Shown: positions 37,729 to 52,534 of the stretch, in pieces
Numbering within the stretch: the first letter of the stretch is position 1
How the letters are laid out: every line of letters starts with the position of its first letter
Assembly: GCA_002441245.1 (NCBI GenBank)
Contig: DJVP01000008.1
Location: 12,593-76,592, forward strand
From: Candidatus Omnitrophica bacterium UBA6253
Lineage (GTDB): Bacteria; Omnitrophota; Gorgyraeia; Gygaellales; Profunditerraquicolaceae
Length of the DNA stretch: 64,000 nt
Direction: 5' to 3'
Notes under the pieces: model-generated
Told to the model about the DNA's origin: nothing
Databases searched by the model: none
Seen by the model: only the letters and a program-made list of their open reading frames with translations
Translations under genes and position numbers: made by a program

Positions 37729-38338
37729 ATTTGGGATTCTGTTTACGGCAATAATCTTTACCCAGTTTTACTAAAAGGGCGTGATATTCATTAAATAGTT
37801 TTGCATCATTTTTAAGATTACCCATAAAAATATCCTGAGCTTGTCCATAAGTAGCATTTTCTGCTAAAATGCGGTGACGGGAAAATATCCTTTTCGTATA
37901 AGCATCAATCACAAATACAGGCTTATTTAATGCATAAAGCAGGATTGAATCAGCGGTTTCCGGGCCGACCCCCTTAACCGCTAGTAATTGGCTGCGCAAG
38001 GCTGCTAAATCTTGAGAGCCCATACGTCTTATATCAGCCGAGTAAAATCTAAAGAAAAACCTAAGAAAATTTTTTATCCTTTCCGCCTTAATATTGTAAT
38101 ACCCGGAGCTTTTAATTAAATTCCCAAGCCTGCGGGATGAAAGTCTTAAAAGCCCTTTGGGATTCAAACATTTTCTCTCTTTAAGGGCAAAGATTGCTTT
38201 CTCTACATTAGCCCAATTAGTATTCTGCGTAAGAATTGCCCCTATAATCACTTCAAAACTACTATCTGCGGGCCACCAGTGCTGCGGGCCAAAATCAGAG
38301 TAAAGCCGTAAGAAGATTCGGTTTAATCTGCGCTTCAT
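37700..38338 (-). CDS. Endonuclease III-family HhH-GPD DNA glycosylase
   Basis: 212 aa. The HhH segment is VKGVGPETAD with the Asp further on. There are C-terminal Cys residues. Confidence 0.7.
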   Translation of the reverse strand: MKRRLNRIFLRLYSDFGPQHWWPADSSFEVIIGAILTQNTNWANVEKAIFALKERKCLNPKGLLRLSSRRLGNLIKSSGYYNIKAERIKNFLRFFFRFYSADIRRMGSQDLAALRSQLLAVKGVGPETADSILLYALNKPVFVIDAYTKRIFSRHRILAENATYGQAQDIFMGNLKNDAKLFNEYHALLVKLGKDYCRKQNPKCEICPLNGQ

Positions 38339-40269
38339 TATTTAAGCTCTAAAGGATTAATGCCGTAATAGGCAAAAATAGTATAAGCGGTTCCTGAAAC
38401 TGAACCAGTATGTTTACCTTTTGGCGTCATCCACCCATGCCCTGTATCTACATAATCCTGCGTGGCATAAGGCAGACATCCTTCACCCTGTCCAGATGGA
38501 GAGGGGCTGGAAATAATCATTTTACCTAACTGCCCGAGATAATTATCCGCTTTGTTCTGATAAACAGCAGCTTTGTCTGCTTCTCCTTTTTTAAGATAAT
38601 AATCTGCCATAATCTTAAATGACACAACCATCTGGGCTGTCCATTCACTTGAAACCACGCCCCCCCGGGAAACATTACGTTGCGGCGCGAAATCAAACCC
38701 CTGAATTTTAACTACCTGCCCACCCGGTCGGCTGAAATTAACCTCTACGCTGCAATTTTCTTCAACAAACTCCATAATCTTATCCGGGTCCATACCTATA
38801 CTCTTAAGCTTTGCCGGACCGATGGCAGCAATTGACCAGGCATAAGTATCTGTGGCAATAGTAGAATCACCTTTGCCGCGCTTAACCGGCAGGTCTTGCC
38901 TGTCATAAGTATGTTGCACCAACCAGCTTAGTGTTTTTTCCGCTGCCTGCTCATATTTATCCATATTAGTCACCCTGGCGAGCATTTTATAAAAAGCATA
39001 AGCATCCAAATGGTGTTCTGTAGAATACCAGCTCATCTGCGGCCCCCCGCGGATACCATTATCGGAATCAGAATTTTGTAACTTGATTATATTCTGGGCG
39101 ATCTCTTCTGCTATCCTTAAATATTTCTTATCACCGGTTGCCTGGGTATATTGAACGATAGAAAGCCCAAGCCAAATATTCGGCCCGCAATGCAACACAA
39201 ATTCCGCAGGAGCTCCATCATCAACATAATAAGCATTAAGAAACCACCCATCTTCCCGCTTGGCATCATTAGCAAAAAAATCAAGAATTTTCTTTGCACG
39301 GGAAAAATCTGAAAATTTATTATAAACTTGTATAAGCAAAGCCTGGTCATATAGAAATGCCCAACTGGCAATATCTTTATCTCCCTCAAAACTCATTACC
39401 AGGCCCGTACGAGGATTCTGACGAACCTTAAACCATTGATACATTTTATCCAAATTCGCTTTTTCCAAAACCACCTTTTTAGTCTCAAGGCGCAGCGATT
39501 CTGCTTGGACTGCCTTCTCATTTAATTGCAGGGCAACCAGCTTTGCCTGCAGGAGATCTCTTTCCTGGACAAGTTTTAAGATTACGCCATTTAATTCTTT
39601 TGTATTATCAACTACAGCTAAAGAGACCGATTCACTTTTCTTTTCAGAAACAGACTTAATTTGTGAAGCCAGCGTTTTGATCTTAACTTGCAAGACGGTT
39701 CTTTCCTGGGCTATCTGTTCTAGCTGCTGCTTCACAAGTTTGGACTCCTGCAATACCCCGACAAGCTCCTCAACAAGCATCTTATTCTTATGGGTCAGCT
39801 GTATATTTAAATATGCGCCAAACCCCAGAGATAAACTTAAAATTAAAATGGAGAGGGCTACAAAGGGAAGAAAAAGTTTCTTTGCCCAGGCATAACGTAT
39901 AAGCATATAATTCTGCCCCGGGTTAATCTTTTCATAATCCAGCCCCAGAAGATAGCGCTTTGTTAAACCGCCAATTTCTTTGGTCCAGGCCAAAGAAACC
40001 GATGCGCATACTGACTTTCCGCTCAATGGGATATCAATCTCTATAGCAAGTTTAACTTTTTTCTCCTGAATTAATTTGATCAACTCGGGCGAAAGATCAT
40101 TTACCGAAAGACAGATACCGCCATGCCCGATGTTATTAGTGAATCCTTGAACCCAAGGAGAAAGAGACTGTTTGCTATCTAAGCTTTCTAAACGGAACTG
40201 CACCGGCAAAACAGTATCCAAACGTATATATTTTCTGCGCTCTGCGCCTAAATTACTATGTTTCTTCAT
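38338..40269 (-). CDS. PilZ-domain, TM, coiled-coil, (alpha/alpha)6-barrel glycosidase-like fusion protein
   Basis: 643 aa. N-terminal RRKYIRL...DLSPELIK/NIGHGGI is PilZ-like (RxxxR ... D/NxSxxG). One TM helix and a coiled coil follow. The roughly 330-aa C-terminal domain has a six-hairpin glycosidase-like composition. Confidence 0.5.
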   Translation of the reverse strand: MKKHSNLGAERRKYIRLDTVLPVQFRLESLDSKQSLSPWVQGFTNNIGHGGICLSVNDLSPELIKLIQEKKVKLAIEIDIPLSGKSVCASVSLAWTKEIGGLTKRYLLGLDYEKINPGQNYMLIRYAWAKKLFLPFVALSILILSLSLGFGAYLNIQLTHKNKMLVEELVGVLQESKLVKQQLEQIAQERTVLQVKIKTLASQIKSVSEKKSESVSLAVVDNTKELNGVILKLVQERDLLQAKLVALQLNEKAVQAESLRLETKKVVLEKANLDKMYQWFKVRQNPRTGLVMSFEGDKDIASWAFLYDQALLIQVYNKFSDFSRAKKILDFFANDAKREDGWFLNAYYVDDGAPAEFVLHCGPNIWLGLSIVQYTQATGDKKYLRIAEEIAQNIIKLQNSDSDNGIRGGPQMSWYSTEHHLDAYAFYKMLARVTNMDKYEQAAEKTLSWLVQHTYDRQDLPVKRGKGDSTIATDTYAWSIAAIGPAKLKSIGMDPDKIMEFVEENCSVEVNFSRPGGQVVKIQGFDFAPQRNVSRGGVVSSEWTAQMVVSFKIMADYYLKKGEADKAAVYQNKADNYLGQLGKMIISSPSPSGQGEGCLPYATQDYVDTGHGWMTPKGKHTGSVSGTAYTIFAYYGINPLELK

Positions 40270-40351: not shown

Positions 40352-41173
40352 CTAAACTATCTCTAACCCTAGGATATTATCAATTTTAAATATACGCTCC
40401 TCTTTTTTTAAGCAGCAGAATCCAATTAAATATTTACTTTTTGTATCCTGGCGGATTTCCTTGGGGATTACCTCCCTCAAGGAGATACCTGCATCTTTTG
40501 TAGACAAATATTTTATCTTTAGGCGAGACTTTAAATTAATCGCTTTCTCAATCTGGGATATTTTTAAAAAAGTGGCGCTTCCCAAAGATTGCGGATTAAA
40601 TGCAAAGAGGCTGGAAAAACTGGGAAAATCCGCAATTCCTTTCTCCTGACAAACATCTTTAAGCTTATTAAAAACTTCCCAGGCTATTTCAACATCAGAA
40701 AAGGCGCGGTGCTGCTGCCGGTCCTTAATCCCCAGCTTATCAGCAATAAACCAAAGCGCATAACGCTGTTGATTGGGCATAAGGCGTTTTGCTATAGTCA
40801 ATATATCAAAGGATATCTGGTTGGCTAATGCCGGAAACCCTATAATTTTTAATTCGTTATTCAAGAAATTTAAATCAAACTCTACATTGTAGGAACACAG
40901 ATAACTGCCTTGTATAAAATCCAGGAATTTAGGCATCACTATCTCTATGCCCGGAGCATTCTTCAGCATTTCCTGGGTGATTTTATTTACCGCAAAGGCT
41001 TGCGGAGAAATTTCTTTTTCCGGATTAACTAAAGCGTCAAATTTAGCAAGTTTCTCCCTACCCCTGACTCTTAAGCCTGCTAACTCAACTATGCGGTCTC
41101 CGGAACCGGGGTTAAGCCCTGTGGTCTCAGTATCAAATATAGTAAACTCTATCTCGTCAATATGTTTAGACAT
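40352..41173 (-). CDS. DEDD-family 3'-5' exonuclease (DnaQ/epsilon-like) with a C-terminal extension
   Basis: 273 aa. The Exo I motif is FTIFDTETTGL, and an H-x4-D motif follows later. Confidence 0.75.
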   Translation of the reverse strand: MSKHIDEIEFTIFDTETTGLNPGSGDRIVELAGLRVRGREKLAKFDALVNPEKEISPQAFAVNKITQEMLKNAPGIEIVMPKFLDFIQGSYLCSYNVEFDLNFLNNELKIIGFPALANQISFDILTIAKRLMPNQQRYALWFIADKLGIKDRQQHRAFSDVEIAWEVFNKLKDVCQEKGIADFPSFSSLFAFNPQSLGSATFLKISQIEKAINLKSRLKIKYLSTKDAGISLREVIPKEIRQDTKSKYLIGFCCLKKEERIFKIDNILGLEIV

Positions 41174-42062
41174 CTCTGGTAGCGATATAGGCGGTGATCA
41201 GACGTTCCGGCTTATAAGAAAGCTTCACTTTACGTAAATTATCTAAACCTGAATCATCCATAATATTAATATAATTATAGTTTTTTAGTCCCCCGCTAAA
41301 CTTGCAGAAAATAAACTGCGCCAATCCTTTAATGGAAAGATCAGTCACTTCATAAAGTATGCAAAATGTGTCATTATTCAATTTATACCCAAAGGTAAAT
41401 CCCTTTATATTTTCATCAACCTTGACTGTTATACCTTTTAAATCCAGCTGCTCATAATTGGATAATGCCTCTTTAATCACTTTGCGGTTATCCTCAAGCA
41501 TGCCGCAATAAAAATCTTCATCGCAATGCGCTTTACGCTCTTCTATCCAATTATCGAATAAACTTAAGCAACCGGCCTCATCTTTTAATTTAAGCGTTGA
41601 AACTTCAAAGTTATAATGTTTAATAAAATAATTGTATGATGCTCGCTGAGATTTAAATTTATTCCCCCTAAGATTGGCCAGCTCGCTTCTTGAACAAAGA
41701 TAGTCAGGGTATTTCTGACGACAAAGATAGCCTGAGGCACGATAATATTCCAAATCCTCCTGTCCGATATTTTCAATGCGTGAGATATCTTTATTTTTGT
41801 TAATGCCATCCATAATCACAAATGACTGTTTTATTGCCAGGAGGCAAGGTTTTTCCCCTAGTGGCGGCAAGTACATAAAGCAACCGACCTTATCACGAAA
41901 AAATACACAGAGGCTGTTTTCAACTAATGTCCATTGGATATCAAAAATGGCTCGCCAAATATAGGTATTGGCAAAAGAAAAAGAGGCCAACTCATGCCTG
42001 GCAAAGGCAAGATGCTTATTAAACAACCCCTGGTCTCTTAAGGTTAATTTATTTAATTTCAT
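41166..42062 (-). CDS. DUF2156-family protein (MprF/lysyl-phosphatidylglycerol synthase C-terminal-like, GNAT/Fem-like fold)
   Basis: 298 aa and soluble. Its length and pattern are consistent with stand-alone DUF2156 proteins. I assigned it from memory of the family, not by an HMM. Confidence 0.5.
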   Translation of the reverse strand: MKLNKLTLRDQGLFNKHLAFARHELASFSFANTYIWRAIFDIQWTLVENSLCVFFRDKVGCFMYLPPLGEKPCLLAIKQSFVIMDGINKNKDISRIENIGQEDLEYYRASGYLCRQKYPDYLCSRSELANLRGNKFKSQRASYNYFIKHYNFEVSTLKLKDEAGCLSLFDNWIEERKAHCDEDFYCGMLEDNRKVIKEALSNYEQLDLKGITVKVDENIKGFTFGYKLNNDTFCILYEVTDLSIKGLAQFIFCKFSGGLKNYNYINIMDDSGLDNLRKVKLSYKPERLITAYIATRDV

Positions 42063-42558
42063 GGGGCAATTTTAATTCGGCAACCTCTCTTACCTCTTCA
42101 TAGGCCTGGACGATCTGGGGGTTATCTTTCAATATCTCCAATTGTCCCGGAGAATTAAGGTATCCGGAAAGATAAGCGATATAATCCTTGGCCTCCTGGC
42201 TATTTATTTTTTCACAAACATAAGGGCAATTTAAATCAACGGTCAAAAGTAATTTATCTTTACGTAAATTAATCAAAAAAGGGTACAGTTGGCATTCGAA
42301 TGGCCGCATATCATAAATTCTGCACATATTATTCGAGGCACCTAAAAACGGGCATATAAAATCTGCACCATCGGGATTAGGTATTGGTTGTATACGCCGA
42401 TCAATAGAAATAGAGGCAGCAGGAATGCCTTCTTTATCCAGTAACCCCTGGATTTCCTCATCCAAAAGACATGGGCTCCATACTGAATTAGCTTCTTTAA
42501 AGCGGCAACAACCCTGGCATTTAAGACAAAACTCCTGCGGGACGAATTGTTTAATCAT
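42049..42558 (-). CDS. YkgJ-family cysteine-cluster protein (PF03692)
   Basis: 169 aa. CLKCQGCC is followed by CPF...C..Y..RP..C, the YkgJ Cys pattern. Confidence 0.65.
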   Translation of the reverse strand: MIKQFVPQEFCLKCQGCCRFKEANSVWSPCLLDEEIQGLLDKEGIPAASISIDRRIQPIPNPDGADFICPFLGASNNMCRIYDMRPFECQLYPFLINLRKDKLLLTVDLNCPYVCEKINSQEAKDYIAYLSGYLNSPGQLEILKDNPQIVQAYEEVREVAELKLPHEIK

Positions 42559-42875
42559 TTTACAAGACTCCCCAATTTAAGCTTTTTATCAGGGCTAAGA
42601 ATAGCCAAAGCATTCTCATCAGAGCCGGCTAAAATCATCCCCTGGCTTTCTACTCCGCGCAAGATTGCCGGCTCAAGGTTATCTACTAAAACTACCTGTT
42701 TGCCCAAAAGCTCTTCCTTAGGATAAAAGTTCCTGATCCCGGCAACCACCTGTTTCTGCCTATCTCCTAAATCCAAGGTTAAAATCAACAATTTATCCGC
42801 ATTCGGATGATCGTTAACCTCTTTTATCTCTGCTATTCTCAAATCTAGTTTCCTAAAATCATCAATGGTTGCCAT
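42555..42875 (-). CDS. tRNA-binding protein (Trbp111/CsaA-like OB-fold; MetRS C-terminal-like)
   Basis: 106 aa. LDLRIAEIKEVNDHPNADKLLILTLDLGD...GMILA matches the tRNA-binding EMAP-like domain. Confidence 0.75.
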   Translation of the reverse strand: MATIDDFRKLDLRIAEIKEVNDHPNADKLLILTLDLGDRQKQVVAGIRNFYPKEELLGKQVVLVDNLEPAILRGVESQGMILAGSDENALAILSPDKKLKLGSLVK

Positions 42876-42887
42876 TTTAACTCCTCT

Positions 42888-44401
42888 CTAGAATTTTAAC
42901 TCTACATAAAACTCAAACTGGTAGGCATTGTTTGCCGATCCATCGCCGCGCAAATAAGGACTAAATAAACTCCCGTCTGTATCATCGCGTTTTTCTTTAT
43001 AGAATTTCCCGGGATAAAACACCCACCCAGGAAACCAATGGTCATATGCTCGCTTGCCTTATAATCAATATAAATATCCACCTCATAACCTAAATCCCGG
43101 GAAAGGTATTTTCCTTGACCATCTAAAGTCCCCACGGGCCGGCTAAAGGAACTCAAATAATATCCATAAAGACTTATACAAAGCTTATCCGTAAAATTAT
43201 AGTCGAATCCGACTGAAGGCATAATCAGGTTTTCAAAATCCCCCGAAGAAAACGTACCCGGGCGCGGGACTCCATAATTTAAGCCATAGCCACCTCCCAT
43301 TGCTACAATGGGAAGCATATCTACATTACTGCTGCTTATCGTATCCCCTAAATTCATATTAGTAGGGGAATAATAGCTAAAGGCGCGATTCTTGCTTCCG
43401 GGATACAAAGTATCCTTGTTTTCCGCCATTTCCGGAGTAGTCTTATTTCCGGAACAAAGCAGGAATTGCAACTCCGGGACGAAGTTGCCAAAGGTGTAAT
43501 CTAACCCGGAATAAAACATGTACCCTGTATGCCGAATATCCTTATAATCACTATCCTGACTCTGGGCATAACCAAAGTTATGCGCAGCTTCTAATTTTAA
43601 TGTAAAATCATCGGCTGCATACTCCCAGGCAGTCCCAAAAGTACCCAGCAAGTCTCTTTTTATGCGAGCAGTAAAAAGATTGTCTCTTTTGCCATTAGAA
43701 GTATAATCTGCCAGCATGCCTACATACGGCCAAAAGGTCTGTTTGCCCACGGCAATCTTAACATCTGTGGCAAAAAAATTAGCCGCATTGGGTTCATATT
43801 TTTGCCCCTGCTCTTCTTCCTGTTTAATATGGGGTCCTAAATGATTTTTATAAACTAAATCTGGGCGGCAATAATAAAGTCGCCAAAAATAATTTTGCGC
43901 CTCTTGATAAAGGCTGACTCCGTAATTTTCATAACCGCCATTTAGACTAAAGCCATTTCCTACTTCATAAACATACATCCCGGTCTTAAGGCCAAAATTG
44001 CCCCAAAGTTTATTATCTAACCAAAGCTCCTCAACCTGAGGCAGTAATTCTGTGTTACGGTATTTCTCTACCCTTCCTCCGGAGTTAATCAATGTGTTAT
44101 GAATAAAAATTGGAGCGCTGTAATCGTATGGCCCGTTACGTTCCAGCTTAATATAAAATTTATTTCCTGAATCTTTAAAATCAGCACTGAAGGCAAAACT
44201 ATAATCAATGCCTAAATAAACAGTGTGGTCATCTTTATTATGGCTGTCTAAATCTACTACGTTCTTAAAACTTACCAGGTCCGCGCGAAAGTAAGTATCT
44301 ATCCCCAAAGCTAATTGTTCCGTATTAAACAATTCATAGCTATGTGCCTTGGCTATAAGATTAAGGATTATAATCAAAGAAAGTAAAACTTTCTTTATCA
44401 T
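42888..44401 (-). CDS. Outer-membrane beta-barrel protein; apparent frameshift near its 3' end
   Basis: Has a signal peptide and an aromatic-rich alternating sequence. The annotated frame ends ...PTSLSFM. The +2 frame over the last 150 nt reads ...SPYLRGDGSANNAYQFEFYVELKF*, which is a classic OMP C-terminal beta-signal. Confidence 0.5.
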
Positions 44402-44519: not shown

Positions 44520-44598
44520 TGGCGGGGCCGACGAGATTTGGACTCGCGATTTCCTCCGTGACAGGGAGGCGCCTTAAACCAGACTAGGCCACGACCCC
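44520..44598 (-). tRNA. tRNA-Asp (GTC) with an encoded CCA
   Basis: Manual cloverleaf. Acceptor GGGGTCG pairs with CGGCCCC (including one G-U). D-arm GCCT/AGGC. Anticodon arm CCTCC-CTGTCAC-GGAGG. T-arm GCGAG-TCCAAAT-CTCGT. Discriminator G, then CCA. Confidence 0.65.
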
Positions 44599-44672: not shown

Positions 44673-44749
44673 TGGTGGGCGATAGAGGAGTTGAACCCCT
44701 GACCTTCTGAATGTAAATCAGACGCTCTAACCAACTGAGCTAATCGCCC
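44673..44749 (-). tRNA. tRNA-Val (TAC) with an encoded CCA
   Basis: Manual cloverleaf. Acceptor GGGCGAT pairs with ATCGCCC. D-arm GCTC/GAGC with loop AGTTGGTTA. Anticodon arm TCTGA-TTTACAT-TCAGA. T-loop TTCAACT. Discriminator A, then CCA. Confidence 0.8.
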
Positions 44750-44817: not shown

Positions 44818-45276
44818 TTATAATCCAGATAACTTTCCCAGGATAATTAATGTAAAAACCATTACAAAAAGCGCAACCGTTTCAACAATGCCTATAACAG
44901 CCAGGTAATTTCCGAAACCCTTGCCGGTCTCACCCATAGCATCGCAGGCACAGGCAGCGCATTTACCTTGAAAATAAGCAGAAAACCCTATAGCCAAGCC
45001 GGCAAAAGCTCCTATGCCCCAAAGATATTGCCCTTTATTGGCCAACTCGACCATTTTAGTCATTACAATATTACCATAAATTGTCTGCGTAAGAGGCGCA
45101 CCGACCAAGGCAACCAGTAAAAACGAAGCGCTTTTGTTCTGGTTAAAATTTTTCTTCCATGCCCCTATCGCCGCCATCCCTGCTACGCCTGTGCCTGCGG
45201 CAGAGCCCAAAGCCGAAAGGCCAAGCACTAATTCTAGCCCCAAATCCTTAAACTGCATTAAAGTTCCTGCTTCCAT
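44818..45276 (-). CDS. atpK: V/A-type ATPase subunit K (proteolipid c)
   Basis: 152 aa with four TM helices. Gly/Ala-rich with a conserved Glu in the last helix. Confidence 0.8.
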   Translation of the reverse strand: MEAGTLMQFKDLGLELVLGLSALGSAAGTGVAGMAAIGAWKKNFNQNKSASFLLVALVGAPLTQTIYGNIVMTKMVELANKGQYLWGIGAFAGLAIGFSAYFQGKCAACACDAMGETGKGFGNYLAVIGIVETVALFVMVFTLIILGKLSGL

Positions 45277-47060
45277 TTTAATTCTCCTTCTTTCTTGCAG
45301 AACGGTTTATAAGCAAAGCCATCCCAAGCAACATTTGCGTGGCTGCAAAACTCCAGCACATTAAGCCTTACACCATGGACCAAAACCGACATCGGCCCTA
45401 AAATAATATTAAGCATATGGCCGCTGACAATAACCAAAGCAGCCATAACTATAGTTAAAAAATCTCCTTTTTGGATTATTCCGGCAGCCATAGCGTTAAA
45501 AGCATCTGCGATAGCTACAGTTGCCAACCCCACTGCAAAAAGACGTATATAGGAAACTACGTCCGTAAAATTATTTACCAGGCTTAAGGCTATTTTTCCC
45601 AAACCTGCTCCGAGCGTTTTAAAGATATTCTTTTGCGGGCTGCTAAAGAATAAAACCAAAACCAATCCTGCCACAATCAACCAGCTCCCGAATGACGGGA
45701 AGGATTCGCTTAAAAGCAGGTTTTTTGCCAGGAAAAATACTGCCCAGATAATGGAAATCCATCCTATCTCCGCCAAAGCCGATAAATCCGGAGCCTTCAA
45801 TGCCGCCCTCCAGCCATGAGCCAAAGATAAATGTAAGGCACCAATAAAAAAACATAACCCTTGGACAAATGACGCATTGAGCAGAACCGGAACCAAGGGC
45901 TTTATCCCCAGGCTTAACAACCATTCCTGGCCAAAGAACGTAGCGGTCAATAACCCCCATATAATAGCGCAAAAACTTAGGATATAAAAGAGAAAAAAGG
46001 TGCCTTTATCTTTAGTTTTATATCCAATTTTCCTATGAACCCAAAAGGTAAGCAACAGATAAACCGCTCCGTATCCGGCATCACCAATAAGTATGCCAAA
46101 GAAAAGGCTGAAAAATATAATAAAAAGTGGGCTGATATCAATCTCCCTGTACCCGGGAACAAGTTCTAATAATCTTAGTACCGGTCTTATAAGTGCGATC
46201 CAGGCAGGATTACGCACCAGGGTTGGCACAGAATCCTCCTTATCGGGCTCTAAAGTTAAGATTCCCCATCCGTTTTGCTTTGCCTGTTTAAAGAGCATAC
46301 CTTCTGCCTCAACCGGGATATAACCTTTCAGGTAGGTAATCTCATTTACCTGTCCCATACCCTTTAATACTGAATAGAAATCTTTTTGATTCAAAAGAAA
46401 TCCCTCAGCACTAACAAGGTCATTATTATAAATCAAATACTCGGATAATTCTTCTCTTATGTTTACCATGATCTTGGCATCTTCGCTAAGCCTGTTTTTC
46501 ATCCCGGATAATGAGGCCCTAGGTAATTCCAGCTCCTTAAAACCAATATTAATATCTTCTTGCGCTACAACTAAACAATTCACTAACGCACCCTGTGTAG
46601 AAATCTTTTTTAAAAGTAAGCCTGGCTGTAAATTATTAACCTTATCCTTGGGGATCTGAACAAACTTAATAAAAATGTTCCTTTCCCGCAGGGCATTTAT
46701 TTGAGCGGGATCAAAATCACCCCAAGGCTCCCATAAATCTATCCGGTTATTCAAAGTTACCGAATATTCTTTTAGTTGGTTGTATCTTTTCTGTAAATCA
46801 ATTATGTGGCGGCAAACAGTTTGCAAATCACCTGACTTATGGATTATATATTTTGATGGATGCTTCTGTCCTGCTGAAGATAAAATAGACCTCGCCTGCT
46901 CAATCAAGCTTAACTTTTCGCTGATCTCATTAAGTTCAAGCCCTGAAGGAGTGTGCTCATGTTCGACATGCACAACCCCCAAGGTGCCTAAACTTTCCAA
47001 AGCGGCATGCGCCTGGTTCTCTTGAATGAGCAAAAAAACTTTTTTCATTTTAACAATCAT
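45258..47060 (-). CDS. atpI: V/A-type ATPase subunit I (a subunit)
   Basis: 600 aa. A soluble N-terminal half is followed by a polytopic C-terminal half with a conserved Arg-containing helix. Confidence 0.8.
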   Translation of the reverse strand: MIVKMKKVFLLIQENQAHAALESLGTLGVVHVEHEHTPSGLELNEISEKLSLIEQARSILSSAGQKHPSKYIIHKSGDLQTVCRHIIDLQKRYNQLKEYSVTLNNRIDLWEPWGDFDPAQINALRERNIFIKFVQIPKDKVNNLQPGLLLKKISTQGALVNCLVVAQEDINIGFKELELPRASLSGMKNRLSEDAKIMVNIREELSEYLIYNNDLVSAEGFLLNQKDFYSVLKGMGQVNEITYLKGYIPVEAEGMLFKQAKQNGWGILTLEPDKEDSVPTLVRNPAWIALIRPVLRLLELVPGYREIDISPLFIIFFSLFFGILIGDAGYGAVYLLLTFWVHRKIGYKTKDKGTFFLFYILSFCAIIWGLLTATFFGQEWLLSLGIKPLVPVLLNASFVQGLCFFIGALHLSLAHGWRAALKAPDLSALAEIGWISIIWAVFFLAKNLLLSESFPSFGSWLIVAGLVLVLFFSSPQKNIFKTLGAGLGKIALSLVNNFTDVVSYIRLFAVGLATVAIADAFNAMAAGIIQKGDFLTIVMAALVIVSGHMLNIILGPMSVLVHGVRLNVLEFCSHANVAWDGFAYKPFCKKEGELKWKQEL

Positions 47061-47674
47061 GCCAGCGCCTCTTCTAAAACCAGATCTTCAATCTTTCTCT
47101 TGGCAATTTTACTGCGGCCTACGGCATTAGCCATCTGATCACCGATATAAATCTTAATTAACCGGATATTTTCCTCGGCCAGCGGAATTTTTACCTTCTC
47201 AAAAAGATTCACTCTTTGCGTAGTCACCCGCAATTCCTGCCGTAAAATATCAATCCCTTCTTGGAGCAATAGGATTTTCTTATTTAAAACAATTACTTCT
47301 CTTAAAGCCAAAATCGCCGCATCCAGCCATAAAGGCATAAGGAATAAATCATATTCTTGATCGCTGAATTCTAACGCATCAAATACAGGAATATCAACAC
47401 CGGCAATATTCTTTTGATGGGTAATTATTCTTTCTGTTTTTAAGAACAGTTTGATCTTTACCTCAGGTTCGGCCAACAAACCAGCCCACAAAATAATCGC
47501 CTGTCTTTTTTTGGTCAGTGTTTGTTTTATGTCCCGAAGGGCTAAATTTTGTTGTAGAATTTCTAACTGCAACTGCTGTTTTTTCAATTGCAAGGTAGGA
47601 AGATATCGTTGGAACTGTTTTAATGCATCACGCTGCCTTTTTAATTCGCCTTTGGTAAGCTTGATTTTTGCCAT
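47057..47674 (-). CDS. atpD: V/A-type ATPase subunit D
   Basis: 205 aa coiled-coil protein. The N-terminus KIKLTKGELKRQRDALKQFQRYLPTL is typical of NtpD. Confidence 0.85.
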   Translation of the reverse strand: MAKIKLTKGELKRQRDALKQFQRYLPTLQLKKQQLQLEILQQNLALRDIKQTLTKKRQAIILWAGLLAEPEVKIKLFLKTERIITHQKNIAGVDIPVFDALEFSDQEYDLFLMPLWLDAAILALREVIVLNKKILLLQEGIDILRQELRVTTQRVNLFEKVKIPLAEENIRLIKIYIGDQMANAVGRSKIAKRKIEDLVLEEALA

Positions 47675-48969
47675 TATTTTTGCGGCCAGAATTTTTCAAT
47701 GATTGAAAGCTTTATACCGGTTTCCTCGGGAGTAAAACAATCAGCAAGAATCTGCCAACCCAGATCCAGGGCTTTTTCTAAGGGGATATTTACCTTAAGC
47801 GACATCATATTTTTTTCAAAAAGCGCCCCGTATTTAAGCAGTTTTTGATCCCAGGCGCTCATTTGAAAACCCATAGACTGTTTCTCCAGGGTCTCACGGT
47901 AACTGGCAAAAAGCTGGATCATCGTATCCATAATCGTACGGTGATCAGCCCGGGTCTTCCCGTTAACCTGTTGCTTCAGGCGGCTTAAAGACCCAAAAGG
48001 TTCGATCACCCCGGATTTTAAATAAAACTGCCCTTCGGTAATGTAACCGGTATTGTCTGGTACAGGATGCGTAACGTCATCACCAGGCATGGTTGTTGCA
48101 GAAAGAATAGTGATTGAACCAGCTCCTTCAAAATCAACTGCTTTTTCATATCTTGCGGCGAGCTGGCTATAAAGATCTCCGGGGTAACCGCGGTTAGAAG
48201 GGACTTGTTCCATGGTAATCGAAATTTCTTTCAGGGAATCGGCAAAATTGGTCATATCCGTCAACAAAACTAATACCCGCTTGCCTTTTAGGGCAAAGTC
48301 CTCGGCTACCGCTAAACTAATATCCGGCACCAGCAAACATTCTACAGTCGGGTCAGCTGCAGTATGCATAAAAAATACGCACCGGGAAAGTGCCCCGTGG
48401 GAATTTAACGTCTCTTTAAAAAAGAGATAATCATCATACTTTAATCCCATGCCACCGACAATGATAATATCTACTTCTGCCTGGATAGCGATACGTGCCA
48501 AAAGTTCATTGTAAGGCTCCCCGGCAATTGAAAAAACCGGCAGTTTTTGAGATTCGACAAGAGAATTAAAAACATCAATCATCGGAATACCAGTGCGGAT
48601 AATCTTATTCGGAATAATCCTTTTAGCCGGATTTACCGAAGGCGCCCCAATATCAATTAAGCCATCGCTTAAAGCCGGCCCATGGTCCAGAGGCACTCCG
48701 CTGCCATTAAATATGCGACCGAGTAAATTTTCACCAGTAGCCACCCGCATTGGAAACCCTAGAAATCTCACCTTATCTCCTGTGGCAATACCGCGCGTGC
48801 CGGCAAAAACCTGCAATGATATTTTTTTAGCATCAATGCGGATCACCTGGGCTAAGGATACGCCACGGCTGGTAGTAATCTGAGCAATCTCGGAATACCC
48901 TACCCCTTCGGCTTCCACGGTAATTACGTCCCCGGCGATTTGAATAATATTGGTATAGGCTTTTTGCAT
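47674..48969 (-). CDS. atpB: V/A-type ATPase subunit B
   Basis: 431 aa with a non-catalytic nucleotide-binding fold. Adjacent to subunit A. Confidence 0.9.
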
Positions 48970-48971
48970 AC

Positions 48972-50720
48972 TTATTTATCCTTCTTGATTTTCTTGCTTT
49001 CCAGCAGGGTTACGATTTGAGACTCAACTTTTTTAAATTCCTGGCTATTATATTCAGCGGAATTCCAGGTACGCATAAGCTGACGCAAGGTTTGAAAAAA
49101 AAGCAAAGCAGACGCCTTATCTTGCAGATTATACTCTCCATCCAATACCGAAGAAATAAATTCCAATAAATAAATCTGCCTTTCTTTAGAAGTAGCTTCA
49201 TCTACGTTATCAAAGGCATTCTGCTGCAAATAAACAAAGTCAAAAAAATCTCCTTTGAGGTATTCAATATAATCCGCAAGCGCGGTCCCTTCTTCACCTA
49301 TAACTTTCATCATTTGGGCAATTTCGTTACCGCGATTCAAAATTGATTGATACTTTTCTTTATATTCCGGTTTAACAAAACCGGCGTATTTACTCCAGCT
49401 AATCAAAGGATCGATGGCCGGATACTTCCTGGCATCTGATCGTTCGCGGGAAAGCCCATGAAAGGCACCGACAACCTTAAGCGTGGCCTGCGTCACCGGC
49501 TCCTCAAAATTTCCTCCAGCAGGGCTAACCGCTCCTCCAATAGTTACCGATCCGGTTTCTCCTGACCGTAGCCTGACTACTCCGGCGCGTTCGTAAAAAG
49601 AAGCTATCCGGCTTTCCAGATATGCCGGAAATGCCTCTTCTCCCGGGATTTCCTCGAGGCGTCCGCTCATTTCACGCATTGCCTGTGCCCAACGAGAAGT
49701 CGAATCCGCCAATAATAAAACATTTAATCCCATCTGGCGATAATATTCAGCAATGGTTACAGCCGTATATACACTGGATTCCCGGGCAGCCACAGGCATA
49801 GAACTGGTGTTACAAATAATTACCGTACGGTCAATTAAAGGCTTCTTTGTACGAGGGTCTATTAATTCAGGAAAAGTCCTTAATGTTTCTACTACTTCCC
49901 CGGCACGTTCGCCGCAGGCGGCGATAATCACGATATCCACTTCGGCGTGGCGGCTGACTAATTGCTGCAAAACTGTTTTGCCGGCTCCGAATGGACCAGG
50001 AGTACAATAAGTACCCCCGCGGTTAATCGGAAAGAGCGAATCAATCAAACGCATCTTGGTAACCAGCGGCTCGCTCGGCCTTAATTTTTCCGCATAGGCG
50101 CAAATCGGCATCTTTACCGGCCAGATCTGCTGCAAAAAGACATCATGCAATATTCCGGAGCTGTCTTTAAGCTGGGCAATAACCTGTTTTAAATTATACT
50201 TACCCGGGGCGGCAATACTGACCACCTCTAAACTGCCGCTTAAATCAAAGGGGGCCATAATATAATGTTTAAAAATCTTTTCCGGTACAAAACCTAACCA
50301 ACTACCCGCTAATACCTTATCTTGCGGTTTGACAAGTGGGCTAAATTCCCACTGCGTTTCATCAGGCAAAGCCTCAAGGTAAACTCCTCTTTTTAAGAAA
50401 AATCCGCATTTTTTGGCTAAAGCCGGAAGAGGATTCTGTAAGCCATCAAAGATCTGGCCTAATAATCCCGGGCCCAATTCTACGCAGAGAAGCTCGCCGC
50501 TAAATTCCACCGCATCCCCTGCCTTCAAACCTTGCGTGCTTTCATAAACCTGCATCTCAGCCTGATTCTGACGCACGCGGATCACTTCAGCCTTTAAACG
50601 CTCCTGGCCGTGAATAACATAGGCTACTTCATTTTGAATAATTTGCCCTTCGATCTGAGCGGTAACCATATTGGCATTAACTTTAATTATTCGTCCGGTT
50701 CTTATTTTTTCCATGGTCAA
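48972..50720 (-). CDS. atpA: V/A-type ATPase catalytic subunit A
   Basis: 582 aa. Walker A GPFGAGKT, and a non-homologous insert typical of A subunits. Confidence 0.9.
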
Positions 50721-50721
50721 T

Positions 50722-51252
50722 TTAATTTAAAAGTGCAGTATTTAACAAATGTTCCCTGTCTGCTGTTTGGATTTTTTCCCAACGCTCCAGGATCTTAAGT
50801 TTTAACCCGTAAATCAGTAAAAAATCAAAATCAAAATAGTGCCCTTGGTTCAAATCTTCCAGGAAATTCCATCTGGCTTGATCAAGAATCATCTCCGCTT
50901 CCAATATCGAGGTACTCCGGTAAGCAATCATCGCTGTATGGCTGATCTGGGCCTGCGCTGAATCCGGAAAGCGCAAGAATTTTAAAGGGTCAATTTTTTT
51001 CCGGGTTGCCCTAGCATGCACCAATTCATTTCTAAGCGCAATCTCAAAACTAACCCACTGTTTTAAACTATTGCTTACCGGAACATCTAAAGAATAACTG
51101 TTCTGTCCGCAGGTATTGCGCAAAATTTCAAGCTCCTTCTCAGGTATTAAATTCTTACATTTGTTAAAGAAATCCTCCAAACTAAATGGTAATTTAGCTG
51201 AAAAATTCAGTACGGGTAAACTGGAAATCAAATATATGTAATAAGCAGACAT
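50722..51252 (-). CDS. Hypothetical protein inside the V-ATPase operon (DUF2764-like position)
   Basis: 176 aa with no ATPase subunit motif. It sits between subunits E and A. Confidence 0.4.
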   Translation of the reverse strand: MSAYYIYLISSLPVLNFSAKLPFSLEDFFNKCKNLIPEKELEILRNTCGQNSYSLDVPVSNSLKQWVSFEIALRNELVHARATRKKIDPLKFLRFPDSAQAQISHTAMIAYRSTSILEAEMILDQARWNFLEDLNQGHYFDFDFLLIYGLKLKILERWEKIQTADREHLLNTALLN

Positions 51253-51855
51253 TTATTCGGGTTTTAAAATTTTACCTAGTTCCGGCTTAAGGCATCCGGA
51301 GATATAGTCACTCAGGGCTTGCCCGCTAAAATCAAAGATAGATTTACCGGCATCAAAACTGATGATAAAACCACTCTCAATCGTATCGGCAGATTTCAAA
51401 ACTATGTTTTTTTTAGTTTCGGAAATTAGTTGCTTTAAAAACCCCTGCCCTAACTTATCCTTATCAAGTGGATTTAAGGAAACCACGACCTGCGACCCCA
51501 GATCCAGTGGCGTATTCTTAATCAACGAAGCGATAATTTTAGACAGCTCTTCAACAGTTAGGGCAAGCCGCAGATCCAGCTTAATCAACCGTTCCAACAT
51601 AGCAATAATCTCCTGCCTTAGGCTAATTAACATATCCCTGCCTGCCTGCTCTAAAGCCGAACGGGTAGAGTCATCCGTCTTCTTGGCTTGATTGTTTGCC
51701 TGCTCAATAATTTTTTGGGCCTGGATTTTTGCCTCTGAAATTATTTTTAAAGCGTCTTTTTCGGCATCGGTTTTTATCTGGGCAGCCTGAGTCTGCGCTA
51801 CCTGAATTCCTTCTGTTTGAATCTTTGCGATTAAATCTTTAATTTCCTGCGCCAT
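51253..51855 (-). CDS. atpE: V/A-type ATPase subunit E
   Basis: 200 aa. An N-terminal long helix rich in A/Q/K/E, and a globular C-terminus. Confidence 0.8.
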   Translation of the reverse strand: MAQEIKDLIAKIQTEGIQVAQTQAAQIKTDAEKDALKIISEAKIQAQKIIEQANNQAKKTDDSTRSALEQAGRDMLISLRQEIIAMLERLIKLDLRLALTVEELSKIIASLIKNTPLDLGSQVVVSLNPLDKDKLGQGFLKQLISETKKNIVLKSADTIESGFIISFDAGKSIFDFSGQALSDYISGCLKPELGKILKPE

Positions 51856-52534
51856 ATAAATCTCCTAACAGTTTTTCTGTTTGCAGTAACGGGTCAGGCG
51901 CCTTTAGAACCGGCCTGCCAATTACCAAAAAATCGCTGCCGGATTTAACTGCCTGACTTACCGTGGTTATTCTTTTTTGGTCATCCCGCTTGGATTCATC
52001 CGGACGAATTCCCGGAGTAACCATGATAAAATTATTTTTAATTTTACGCCGCAAAATTATGCCTTCCTGCGCAGAACAAACCACTCCGTCTAACCCGCAA
52101 GCTATCCCCTGCTTTGCTAATTTTAGAACCTCTCGGTGGTTAGTCTTTTGGCTGGTGAGAACAGTAACCCCGATCAATAAAGGTGGAGGGTTTTTTAATG
52201 CACTTGCCTGCTCTTTAGCTGACTCCACCGCAGCCTTTAACATTTCCTGCCCGCCGGAAATATGCAAGGTAAGCATTTTTACCTTAAGCCTTACCGCAGC
52301 AGCTACCGCTTGAGCAACGGTATTAGGGATGTCAAAATACTTAAGATCTAAAAAAACCTCAGCCCCTTTTTTATGCAATAGGTCAATAATCTTTGGCCCA
52401 TAAGCCGTAAAAAGATGGCTGCCGACCTTAAAAAACCTTATCTTAGGATAAAGTTTTTCCACAAAATTCTCAGCCTCTTCTAATGTATTTACGTCTAAGG
52501 CTAAAATTATCTCGGGCGAACTTAATCTTTGCAT
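51839..52534 (-). CDS. pyrF: Orotidine-5'-phosphate decarboxylase
   Basis: 231 aa. Has the ILALDV and FLDLKYFDIPNT motifs. Confidence 0.9.
   Translation of the reverse strand: MQRLSSPEIILALDVNTLEEAENFVEKLYPKIRFFKVGSHLFTAYGPKIIDLLHKKGAEVFLDLKYFDIPNTVAQAVAAAVRLKVKMLTLHISGGQEMLKAAVESAKEQASALKNPPPLLIGVTVLTSQKTNHREVLKLAKQGIACGLDGVVCSAQEGIILRRKIKNNFIMVTPGIRPDESKRDDQKRITTVSQAVKSGSDFLVIGRPVLKAPDPLLQTEKLLGDLYGAGN

Follow-up and report, generated by a model that had tools for sequence, protein, structure and literature searches.

The stretch of DNA considered here, referred to as the window, comprises 64,000 nucleotides (nt) of contig DJVP01000008.1 from Candidatus Omnitrophica bacterium UBA6253. On its minus strand lies a cassette of overlapping genes for a Trbp111-like tRNA-binding protein, a YkgJ-type Cys-cluster protein, a DUF2156 protein and an exonuclease. 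The best overall explanation of this cassette is a two-subunit Cys-cluster/DUF2156 aminoacyl-tRNA transferase, to which the Trbp111-like protein perhaps presents tRNA, and a probability of roughly 0.5 is given to this reading. The functional core would be the YkgJ-type Cys-cluster protein and the soluble, tandem-GNAT DUF2156 protein, acting as two subunits. An earlier note on the same DNA had grouped the first three genes as a possible transferase system, and its assignments to PF09924/DUF2156, PF03692 and PF01588 all hold when checked with Pfam hidden Markov models (HMMs). The genes, families, fold, fusion, synteny, conserved cysteines, basic helix and solubility described below were computed in this work.

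The Cys-cluster and DUF2156 subunits

The DUF2156 gene (41166..42062, minus strand; PF09924, LPG_synthase_C) encodes 298 amino acids (aa), and the CxxCxxCC, or YkgJ-type, gene ahead of it (42049..42558, minus strand; PF03692) encodes 169 aa. Relatives of the DUF2156 protein were collected by an exhaustive homology search of 1.84 billion cluster representatives, which returned 3457 of them, 188 at E<1e-30. A fusion census was made on the best 149 representatives (50%-identity clusters), classed with a purpose-built HMM. These comprise 58 CxxCxxCC-DUF2156 fusions, 71 stand-alone proteins, 17 fragments and 3 others, two of which look like fusions truncated at the N-terminus; fusions account for 58 of the approximately 132 full-length representatives. 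About one-third of the best 150 relatives have lengths of 420-545 aa and carry the DUF2156 part C-terminally, and nine of ten long homologues tested against Pfam carry PF03692 at the N-terminus together with PF09924. The fusions are found in Omnitrophota and Nitrospirota, including a metagenome-assembled genome labelled Nitrospira defluvii. Because fused and split forms interleave in a rough neighbour-joining tree, repeated fusion and fission of the two parts is suggested.

Gene order points the same way as the fusions. Two groups of loci were compared, a near and mid set from 80 Omnitrophota species at 50-87% identity and a distant set from a clade at approximately 33-48% identity, in which 55 loci could be assessed for the Cys-cluster gene. 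This gene is adjacent to or fused with the DUF2156 gene in every assessable locus of the former set and in 54 of the 55 of the latter, L122 being the sole exception. In L122 (4666-7308) the order runs from the tRNA-binding gene to DUF2156 and then pabB, with neither a Cys-cluster gene nor the exonuclease. The 169-aa window protein aligns over its full length with the N-terminal module (approximately 170 aa) of 65 fusions at 27-43% identity. Given these Rosetta-stone fusions and the conserved adjacency, the Cys-cluster and DUF2156 proteins are taken as a physical and functional unit, and, as far as sequence comparison can tell, they almost certainly form one enzyme. The earlier note had suggested the YkgJ-type protein as a partner, and the natural fusions provide stronger evidence for this than the note had. 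The module takes the N-terminal place that is held by the flippase in MprF and by an aminoacyl-tRNA synthetase in ErdS.

The DUF2156 protein matches PF09924 with 102.3 bits against a gathering score of 27.5, over model positions 10-297 of 298. Its AlphaFold2 model has a predicted local distance difference test score (pLDDT) of 90.1 and a predicted template-modelling score (pTM) of 0.87, and adopts a tandem-GNAT fold. When the model is compared with the PDB using Foldseek, the top match is 2HQY (TM-score 0.85, 27% identity), a stand-alone DUF2156 protein of Bacteroides thetaiotaomicron that has the same length of 298 aa and is the closest solved relative. Next come the MprF synthase domains 5VRV, 4V36, 4V34, 9J8Q and 6LV0 (TM-score 0.57-0.66), followed by the streptothricin aminoacyl-tRNA peptide synthases Sbb17/Sba18 and by FemX (E 1e-8 to 1e-7; TM-score 0.54-0.62), with acetyl-CoA tandem GNATs ranked below these aminoacyl-tRNA transferases. 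The Foldseek probability is 1.00 for 2HQY, the MprF domains and FemX. The fold of the MprF C-terminal domain and Fem transferases, which the earlier note had proposed, is therefore recovered. Family-profile HMMER searches of the PDB reach only 2HQY (E=1.5e-51) and no MprF domain, and in structural alignments the subfamily is 10-16% identical to MprF domains. Since the sequence searches reach only 2HQY, the protein is best placed in a distinct, uncharacterised branch of PF09924.

A basic helix between the two GNAT halves, termed alpha(+), docks the tRNA acceptor stem and is a hallmark of the family (PMC8913301, PMC6103681). The corresponding helix (136-149) is present in the AlphaFold2 model. 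Averaged over 69 diverse members, the net charge of segment 132-150 (LRGNKFKSQRASYNYFIKHY in the window protein) is +3.9, and R140 is conserved in 100% of them, K137 in 96% and K/R148 in 83%. The protein has no transmembrane segment (maximum Kyte-Doolittle 19-residue mean 1.13), and neither does any of the four cassette proteins. MprF synthase domains (4V36, 4V34, 5VRV, 9J8Q) likewise combine PF09924, the tandem-GNAT fold and the basic inter-domain helix. Unlike the window protein, MprF carries an N-terminal integral-membrane flippase of 2-14 transmembrane helices; in the window the partner or fused module is the soluble Cys-cluster protein, and a lipid acceptor is only putative. In its working the DUF2156 protein probably resembles the MprF synthase domain, yet it is not an MprF, the flippase domain being absent.

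Comparable enzymes are known from fungi. ErgS is a free-standing DUF2156 protein that transfers glycine from Gly-tRNA to ergosterol, and ErdS is an AspRS-DUF2156 protein that transfers aspartate from Asp-tRNA to the same sterol, so that Asp has a precedent as a donor (PMC8913301, PMC7334510). Both are soluble and lack a flippase, as in the window, although they are eukaryotic, act on a sterol and have no Cys-cluster module. DUF2156 enzymes also recruit translation components, as seen in the AspRS fusion of ErdS and the LysRS fusion of LysX (PMC8913301, PMC7334510, PMC6103681). ErdS in this way channels aminoacyl-tRNA through a fused aminoacyl-tRNA synthetase, whereas the tRNA-handling partner in the window would be a separate Trbp111-type protein. 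FemX and Sbb17/Sba18 are likewise soluble tandem-GNAT aminoacyl-tRNA transferases, recovered here by fold, and their acceptors are not lipids; they differ from the window protein in belonging to other Pfam families, in their lower structural similarity and in having no Cys-cluster or Trbp111 partners.

Taken as one enzyme, the DUF2156 and Cys-cluster proteins are probably an aminoacyl-tRNA-dependent transferase in which the basic helix docks the acceptor stem. The tandem-GNAT fold by itself is no proof of aminoacyl-tRNA use, and 2HQY, the solved member of the subfamily, is a protein of unknown function; both points weigh against this assignment. The unit could alternatively be an acyl-CoA GNAT acyltransferase, possibly with an RNA or small-molecule substrate, or a non-catalytic binding protein. 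Tandem-GNAT acetyl-CoA enzymes (2WPW, VipF, glucosamine N-acetyltransferase) do appear in the fold search at E of approximately 1e-7 to 1e-6, the conserved G246-x-A248 falls where GNATs have their pyrophosphate-binding loop, and the low identity to MprF domains and the failure of HMMER profiles to reach them also count in favour of such an enzyme. This alternative is nevertheless unlikely. The PF09924 match is full length and well above threshold, aminoacyl-tRNA transferases outrank acyl-CoA GNATs in the fold search, conservation does not extend to the Q/R of the acyl-CoA motif, where the window protein has S243, and the conserved basic inter-domain helix is typical of aminoacyl-tRNA transferases (PMC6103681).

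The Cys-cluster protein matches PF03692 with 31.1 bits against a gathering score of 23. Eight cysteines (C11, C14, C17, C18, C69, C79, C89 and C111) are invariant in 66 split and fused sequences. They include an N-terminal C11xxC14xxC17C18 motif and a C-terminal C69...C79RIYxxRPxxC89 motif, and the pattern of an N-terminal CxxCxxCC with a C-terminal C...C..Y..RP..C is common to YkgJ/PF03692 proteins, including FliB. Unlike PF03692 proteins at large, the window subfamily is specialised as a partner of DUF2156, either paired or fused with it. The AlphaFold2 model has a pLDDT of 92.1, and no PDB match was found for the protein by sequence or fold, the best Foldseek E being 1.3. It seems that the PF03692 fold has yet to be characterised structurally.

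Two characterised proteins suggest what such a module might do. In FliB, a PF03692-like Cys motif holds a [4Fe-4S] cluster needed for lysine N-methylation dependent on S-adenosylmethionine (SAM) (PMC8598068), and phage DpdM, a YkgJ homologue according to its authors, methylates the preQ1 amine (bioRxiv 10.1101/2023.04.13.536721). The Cys-cluster protein could similarly be an Fe-S SAM-dependent N-methyltransferase that acts on the amino group delivered by DUF2156, or on an acceptor amine, to give an N-methylated aminoacyl product. The eight invariant cysteines and the obligatory coupling of the module to DUF2156 agree with this idea. It is nonetheless very unlikely: no similarity to DUF3109 was detected and no SAM-binding motif was identified in the protein, the Cys motif is all that it has in common with FliB and DpdM, its fold has no solved relative, and the cysteines could equally bind structural zinc. 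If true, Fe-S chemistry would here be coupled to aminoacyl transfer from tRNA, making a two-step modification enzyme of a new kind that Omnitrophota and Nitrospirota share.

The tRNA-binding protein and its conserved neighbourhood

The first gene of the cassette (42555..42875, minus strand) encodes a 106-aa protein with a PF01588 OB-fold (106.8 bits against a cutoff of 27, E=6.3e-31). The earlier note had labelled it Trbp111/CsaA. The Trbp111 part of this label stands, as the protein scores 130.8 bits against the 116.65 cutoff of TIGR00399 (metG_C_term) and its best PDB sequence matches are 1MKH, the C-domain of Pyrococcus methionyl-tRNA synthetase (MetRS), at 3e-33 and Trbp111 1PYB at 2.6e-26. 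The CsaA part was rejected, with 54.5 bits against the 119.65 cutoff of TIGR02222 and weak matches to CsaA structures (E=1.9e-10 to 6.6e-8). By its sequence the protein, which is soluble and acidic, is of the Trbp111/MetRS C-domain type, and it matches Trbp111 of Aquifex aeolicus (1PYB) and MetRS C-domains or beta subunits (1MKH, 8VTZ) at E=3e-33 to 3e-26. Known members of this type act with aminoacyl-tRNA synthetases, whereas the window's gene is coupled to a DUF2156 enzyme across the phylum. A phmmer search with an approximate query, the E. coli MetRS core, found no metG in the window or the fetched loci.

The trio co-occurs across genomes, as the earlier note had supposed, being syntenic in well over 100 Omnitrophota loci; the DUF2156/Fem-like match and the synteny in relatives, on whose absence that note would have been abandoned, are both present. 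In the near and mid set, almost every locus has the tRNA-binding gene as the next gene upstream. Among the 41 distant loci that could be assessed, 35 have it upstream, and in 23 of these it adjoins the enzyme directly. In L088, L090 and L093 it sits beside a fused enzyme in a different context, with genes for an acyl-CoA dehydrogenase, a patatin, a DedA protein and an ArfB-like protein upstream and with pabB-pabC downstream, and in L122, where the Cys-cluster gene is missing, it abuts DUF2156 directly. Within Omnitrophota it is strongly associated with the enzyme.

The exonuclease (40352..41173, minus strand, 273 aa) is a DnaQ/PolC-exo-like DEDDh 3'-5' exonuclease with a C-terminal WYL domain. 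It matches PF00929 (E=4e-32), PF13280 WYL (8e-8) and TIGR00573 (91.8 against a 71.5 cutoff), and its DEDDh motifs, read in translation, are intact: D14/E16 (FDTETTG), D99 (YNVEFD) and H154/D159 (HRAFSD). The gene follows DUF2156 in 118 of 156 related loci and is directly downstream in 29 of 41 distant ones; together with the tRNA-binding gene it flanks the enzyme across Omnitrophota, down to approximately 33% identity. Its WYL domain is lineage-dependent, being present in proteins of 273 aa and absent from those of approximately 195 aa.

Downstream of the cassette in other lineages lie pabB (TIGR00553, 339-351 bits against a 328 cutoff) and a pabC-like gene for a class-IV aminotransferase, which follow it in 29 of 36 loci of the distant set, in 19 of 38 mid ones and in 3 of 8 that carry fusions. 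In most Omnitrophota lineages the two stand directly after the cassette (L045-L156; for example L088 7244-9484 and L122 5863-7308). Neither gene occurs anywhere in the 64-kb window, and both are absent from the window's own lineage, which has in their place genes for a 643-aa protein with a PilZ-like region, an HhH-GPD glycosylase, an M20 peptidase and a PAC2 protein.

Upstream of the cassette, the tRNA scan and Rfam both place genes for tRNA-Asp(GUC) (44520..44598, minus strand) and tRNA-Val(UAC) (44673..44749, minus strand). Across 157 related loci, 60 tRNA-Asp and 54 tRNA-Val genes lie upstream on the same strand, with four genes for other tRNAs, and in 13 loci the tRNA-Asp gene ends 74-185 nt ahead of the first cassette gene. 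The pair could hint at the donor or the acceptor tRNA, or could be ancestral synteny. The ancestral Omnitrophota block looks like tRNA-Val, tRNA-Asp, tRNA-binding gene, Cys-cluster gene, DUF2156, exonuclease, pabB and pabC in that order, and may be a mixed "uber-operon".

On a rival account, only the Cys-cluster/DUF2156 pair would be the functional unit, and the rest would be an inherited housekeeping uber-operon. Transcribed along with the tRNA genes, the 106-aa protein would be the ordinary beta subunit of MetRS or a tRNA chaperone of the general Trbp111 kind, the exonuclease a DnaQ-like DNA proofreader, and pabB/pabC the makers of folate, with all of them held together by tight packing and shared expression instead of shared chemistry. 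Much of the neighbourhood fits this account. The TIGR00399 score is above cutoff and the best PDB matches are MetRS C-domains; pabB passes its own cutoff, and pabB/pabC-like genes recur in the mid and distant loci, as does the tRNA pair upstream; the exonuclease matches DnaQ-family models; the fusions of Nitrospirota and some Omnitrophota stand alone; and gene overlaps are ubiquitous in the window. Against it, the unrelated overlapping neighbours in the window (the 643-aa, HhH-GPD, M20 and PAC2 proteins) lose synteny fully in distant genomes, while the tRNA-binding gene is still directly adjacent in 23 of 41 distant loci and stays with the enzyme both in L122 and where the flanking genes differ, in three such contexts. 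It also makes sense that a tRNA-binding protein should be paired with a family in which every characterised member uses aminoacyl-tRNA. On balance the housekeeping account is rather doubtful, though far from negligible.

Several observations weigh against a Trbp111-type protein that serves the transferase. The 106-aa protein meets the NCBI MetRS beta-subunit model TIGR00399, it is named "methionine--tRNA ligase subunit beta" in GenBank, and it may be a housekeeping factor. L017 and L072, both in the 50-87% set, have no tRNA-binding gene. Six of nine fusion genes looked up stand alone with none beside them, namely all three from Nitrospirota and three further ones, two of them in named Omnitrophota, and no fusion of the tRNA-binding protein with DUF2156 occurs among 412 proteins examined. 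The neighbour conservation that links the tRNA-binding gene to DUF2156 is common to the exonuclease, pabB/pabC and the tRNA genes, and in the distant set the persistence of the tRNA-binding gene (35/41) is in effect no higher than that of pabB/pabC (29/36), with the exonuclease at 29/41. Because the exonuclease, pabB/pabC and the tRNA pair persist likewise without obvious tRNA chemistry, the tRNA link is unproven. The dedicated tRNA-binding partner of the earlier note is accordingly borne out in its synteny and not in its dedication. A dedicated tRNA-presenting role for the Trbp111-type protein is plausible, and its standing as a working partner that presents tRNA to the enzyme is proposed tentatively, at somewhat less than even odds.

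Gene overlaps and surroundings of the cassette

The earlier note had located three open reading frames (ORFs) with overlaps of 4 and 14 nt, and both the coordinates and the overlaps are exact in the ORF list and in the sequence. All three match Pfam models and have more than 1000 homologues, and are real genes. On the minus strand, the tRNA-binding and Cys-cluster genes share a 4-nt ATGA stop/start overlap (42555..42558), the Cys-cluster and DUF2156 genes overlap by 14 nt (42049..42062), and DUF2156 and the exonuclease overlap by 8 nt (41166..41173), as read from the sequence; the exonuclease is the fourth overlapping gene of the chain, beyond the trio. A Shine-Dalgarno-like GAGAGGAG (42881..42888, minus strand), read directly, lies 5 nt 5' of the ATG of the tRNA-binding gene and 13 nt past the stop of the upstream 499-aa gene.

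The overlaps in themselves carry little weight. Among same-strand neighbour pairs in the window, 25 of 53 overlap and 36 of 53 lie within 10 nt of each other, including unrelated pairs such as M20 peptidase/HhH-GPD glycosylase and HhH-GPD/PilZ protein. Because 25 of 53 pairs overlap, the overlap in the trio is no more than expected by chance in this genome and is uninformative as evidence of coupling, and the claim that the three genes are "almost certainly co-translated" does not follow from it. What exceeds chance is the conservation of the overlaps across related loci. The 4-nt overlap between the tRNA-binding and Cys-cluster genes is kept in 68 of 84 related loci and the 14-nt overlap between the Cys-cluster and DUF2156 genes in 52 of the 84 loci where these two are split. 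DUF2156 and the exonuclease overlap by 8 nt in 42 of 83 loci and by 17 nt in 14 of 83 (56/83 together). The 14-nt overlap coincides exactly with the domain boundary of the fused CxxCxxCC-DUF2156 relatives, in which there is one continuous ORF.

A programmed +1 frameshift at CCC-C (42062-42066), just before the DUF2156 ATG, was considered as a route to a fused protein. The frame arithmetic fits, as ribosomes slipping by +1 on the proline codon of the Cys-cluster gene would pass into the DUF2156 frame, but the CCCC slip motif is not conserved, relatives having CCGC, CCAC, CCTG and other variants. The frameshift was rejected, and CCC-C-ATG at the DUF2156 start is probably coincidental.

The ends of the operon are undefined, because promoter-like matches are at the level of shuffled controls and terminator-like matches are weak and scattered inside coding sequence. 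An Rfam scan of the window found no T-box or riboswitch, the two tRNAs being the sole matches. PADLOC gave no defence-system match for the trio and only generic DEDDh/WYL accessory-domain matches for the exonuclease, and membership of the trio in a known anti-phage defence system was rejected on the absence of a match.

This genome segment is very compact and co-directional, and nearly half of its neighbouring genes overlap. Its strand bias is extreme: of 58 large ORFs, approximately 56 are encoded on the minus strand. The GC skew stays negative over the whole window. Upstream of the cassette, a 499-aa protein (42902-44401, minus strand) has a hydrophobic N-terminus, a sub-threshold match to the Alginate_exp porin family (16 bits) and no NCBIfam match. 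Its gene sits between the tRNA genes and the cassette and is regarded as a lineage-specific insertion, because other lineages have tRNA-Asp directly before the tRNA-binding gene. Beyond the tRNA genes lies a V-type ATPase operon (44818-52534, minus strand; subunits K, I, D, B, A and others), which is syntenic with the cassette in near relatives and a few distant loci. Downstream, the 643-aa protein (38338-40269, minus strand) has no significant Pfam match, while its orthologue in L001 has a PilZ match; it seems to consist of a PilZ-like region at the N-terminus, then a hydrophobic segment and a large C-terminal domain that is uncharacterised, and the gene is kept downstream of the cassette in near relatives only. 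None of the window's other flanking genes (those for the 499-aa outer-membrane-protein-like, 643-aa, HhH-GPD, M20 and PAC2 proteins) is found in the distant set.

In one Omnitrophota lineage, a gene for an ArfB-like RF-1-domain protein of the peptidyl-tRNA hydrolase type (121-139 aa) lies immediately upstream of the tRNA-binding gene (L088 4274-4684, L090 4319-4684, L093 4256-4675), preceded by DedA/VTT, patatin and acyl-CoA dehydrogenase genes. The ArfB-like protein was rejected as a general partner of the cassette, as it occurs in three loci of that lineage only. On one further Omnitrophota contig, a gene of the MamI family (magnetosome membrane protein, PF26391; L091 4048-4272) lies near a stand-alone fusion, probably by coincidence.

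Proposed mechanism and significance

The two-subunit enzyme would most likely work like other DUF2156 enzymes, that is, the MprF synthase domain and the fungal ErdS and ErgS. From the computed features we infer an aminoacyl-tRNA donor, a bound metal, a helper role for the Trbp111-like protein and any role that the exonuclease may have. The basic helix between the GNAT halves would dock the acceptor stem of an aminoacyl-tRNA, and the aminoacyl group would pass to a hydroxyl or amine of a second substrate, whose binding site would be in the other GNAT half or in the Cys-cluster module. The latter may bind zinc or an Fe-S cluster through its eight invariant cysteines and would probably supply acceptor binding or a second chemical step. 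The Trbp111-like protein, translationally coupled to the enzyme from just upstream, may act as a dimer that grips the charged tRNA at its elbow and presents it to the enzyme.

By analogy, candidate acceptors are a lipid, for which the family gives the precedent, and a glycan, a peptide or a small molecule, which are possible because FemX and Sbb17/Sba18 have non-lipid acceptors. More speculatively, the tRNA genes and the tRNA-binding protein suggest an acceptor group borne on a tRNA. The Trbp111-like dimer would then hold the acceptor tRNA while the enzyme aminoacylates, with or without N-methylation, a modified base such as (pre)queuosine-34 of tRNA-Asp. This idea, which is a long shot, arises because a tRNA-Asp gene recurs just upstream of the cassette. 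GluQRS glutamylates Q34 of tRNA-Asp, and a modification of the Q34 type made here would, if true, be an aminoacyl-tRNA-dependent analogue of it.

The individual domains of the cassette are known, and GenBank annotates them generically. In the titles and abstracts of the DUF2156 papers searched, no description of a Cys-cluster/DUF2156 fusion or of an association with Trbp111 is apparent, and a combined search of the same literature listed no paper joining Omnitrophota with MprF and aminoacyl-tRNA transferases. What is new is that a branch of soluble DUF2156 proteins has a YkgJ-type module as its obligate partner and, in Omnitrophota, is embedded in a conserved block with a tRNA flavour. To our knowledge, every characterised DUF2156 enzyme takes charged tRNAs away from translation and uses them in lipid modification; MprF acts in antibiotic resistance, and ErdS and ErgS are fungal.

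The analysis defines a large soluble branch of DUF2156, with 188 clusters at E<1e-30 in two phyla and the orphan structure 2HQY as its closest solved relative. It also offers a way into the function of two widespread families that have none assigned, namely PF03692, to which E. coli YkgJ belongs, and the stand-alone bacterial DUF2156 proteins. A free-standing tRNA-binding cofactor would be a first for a non-ribosomal aminoacyl-tRNA transferase, and the Trbp111-type protein would be that cofactor if it proves to be a true subunit. The cassette is a near-universal signature of the uncultured phylum Omnitrophota, and therefore probably encodes a core trait of the envelope or RNA biology of these bacteria.

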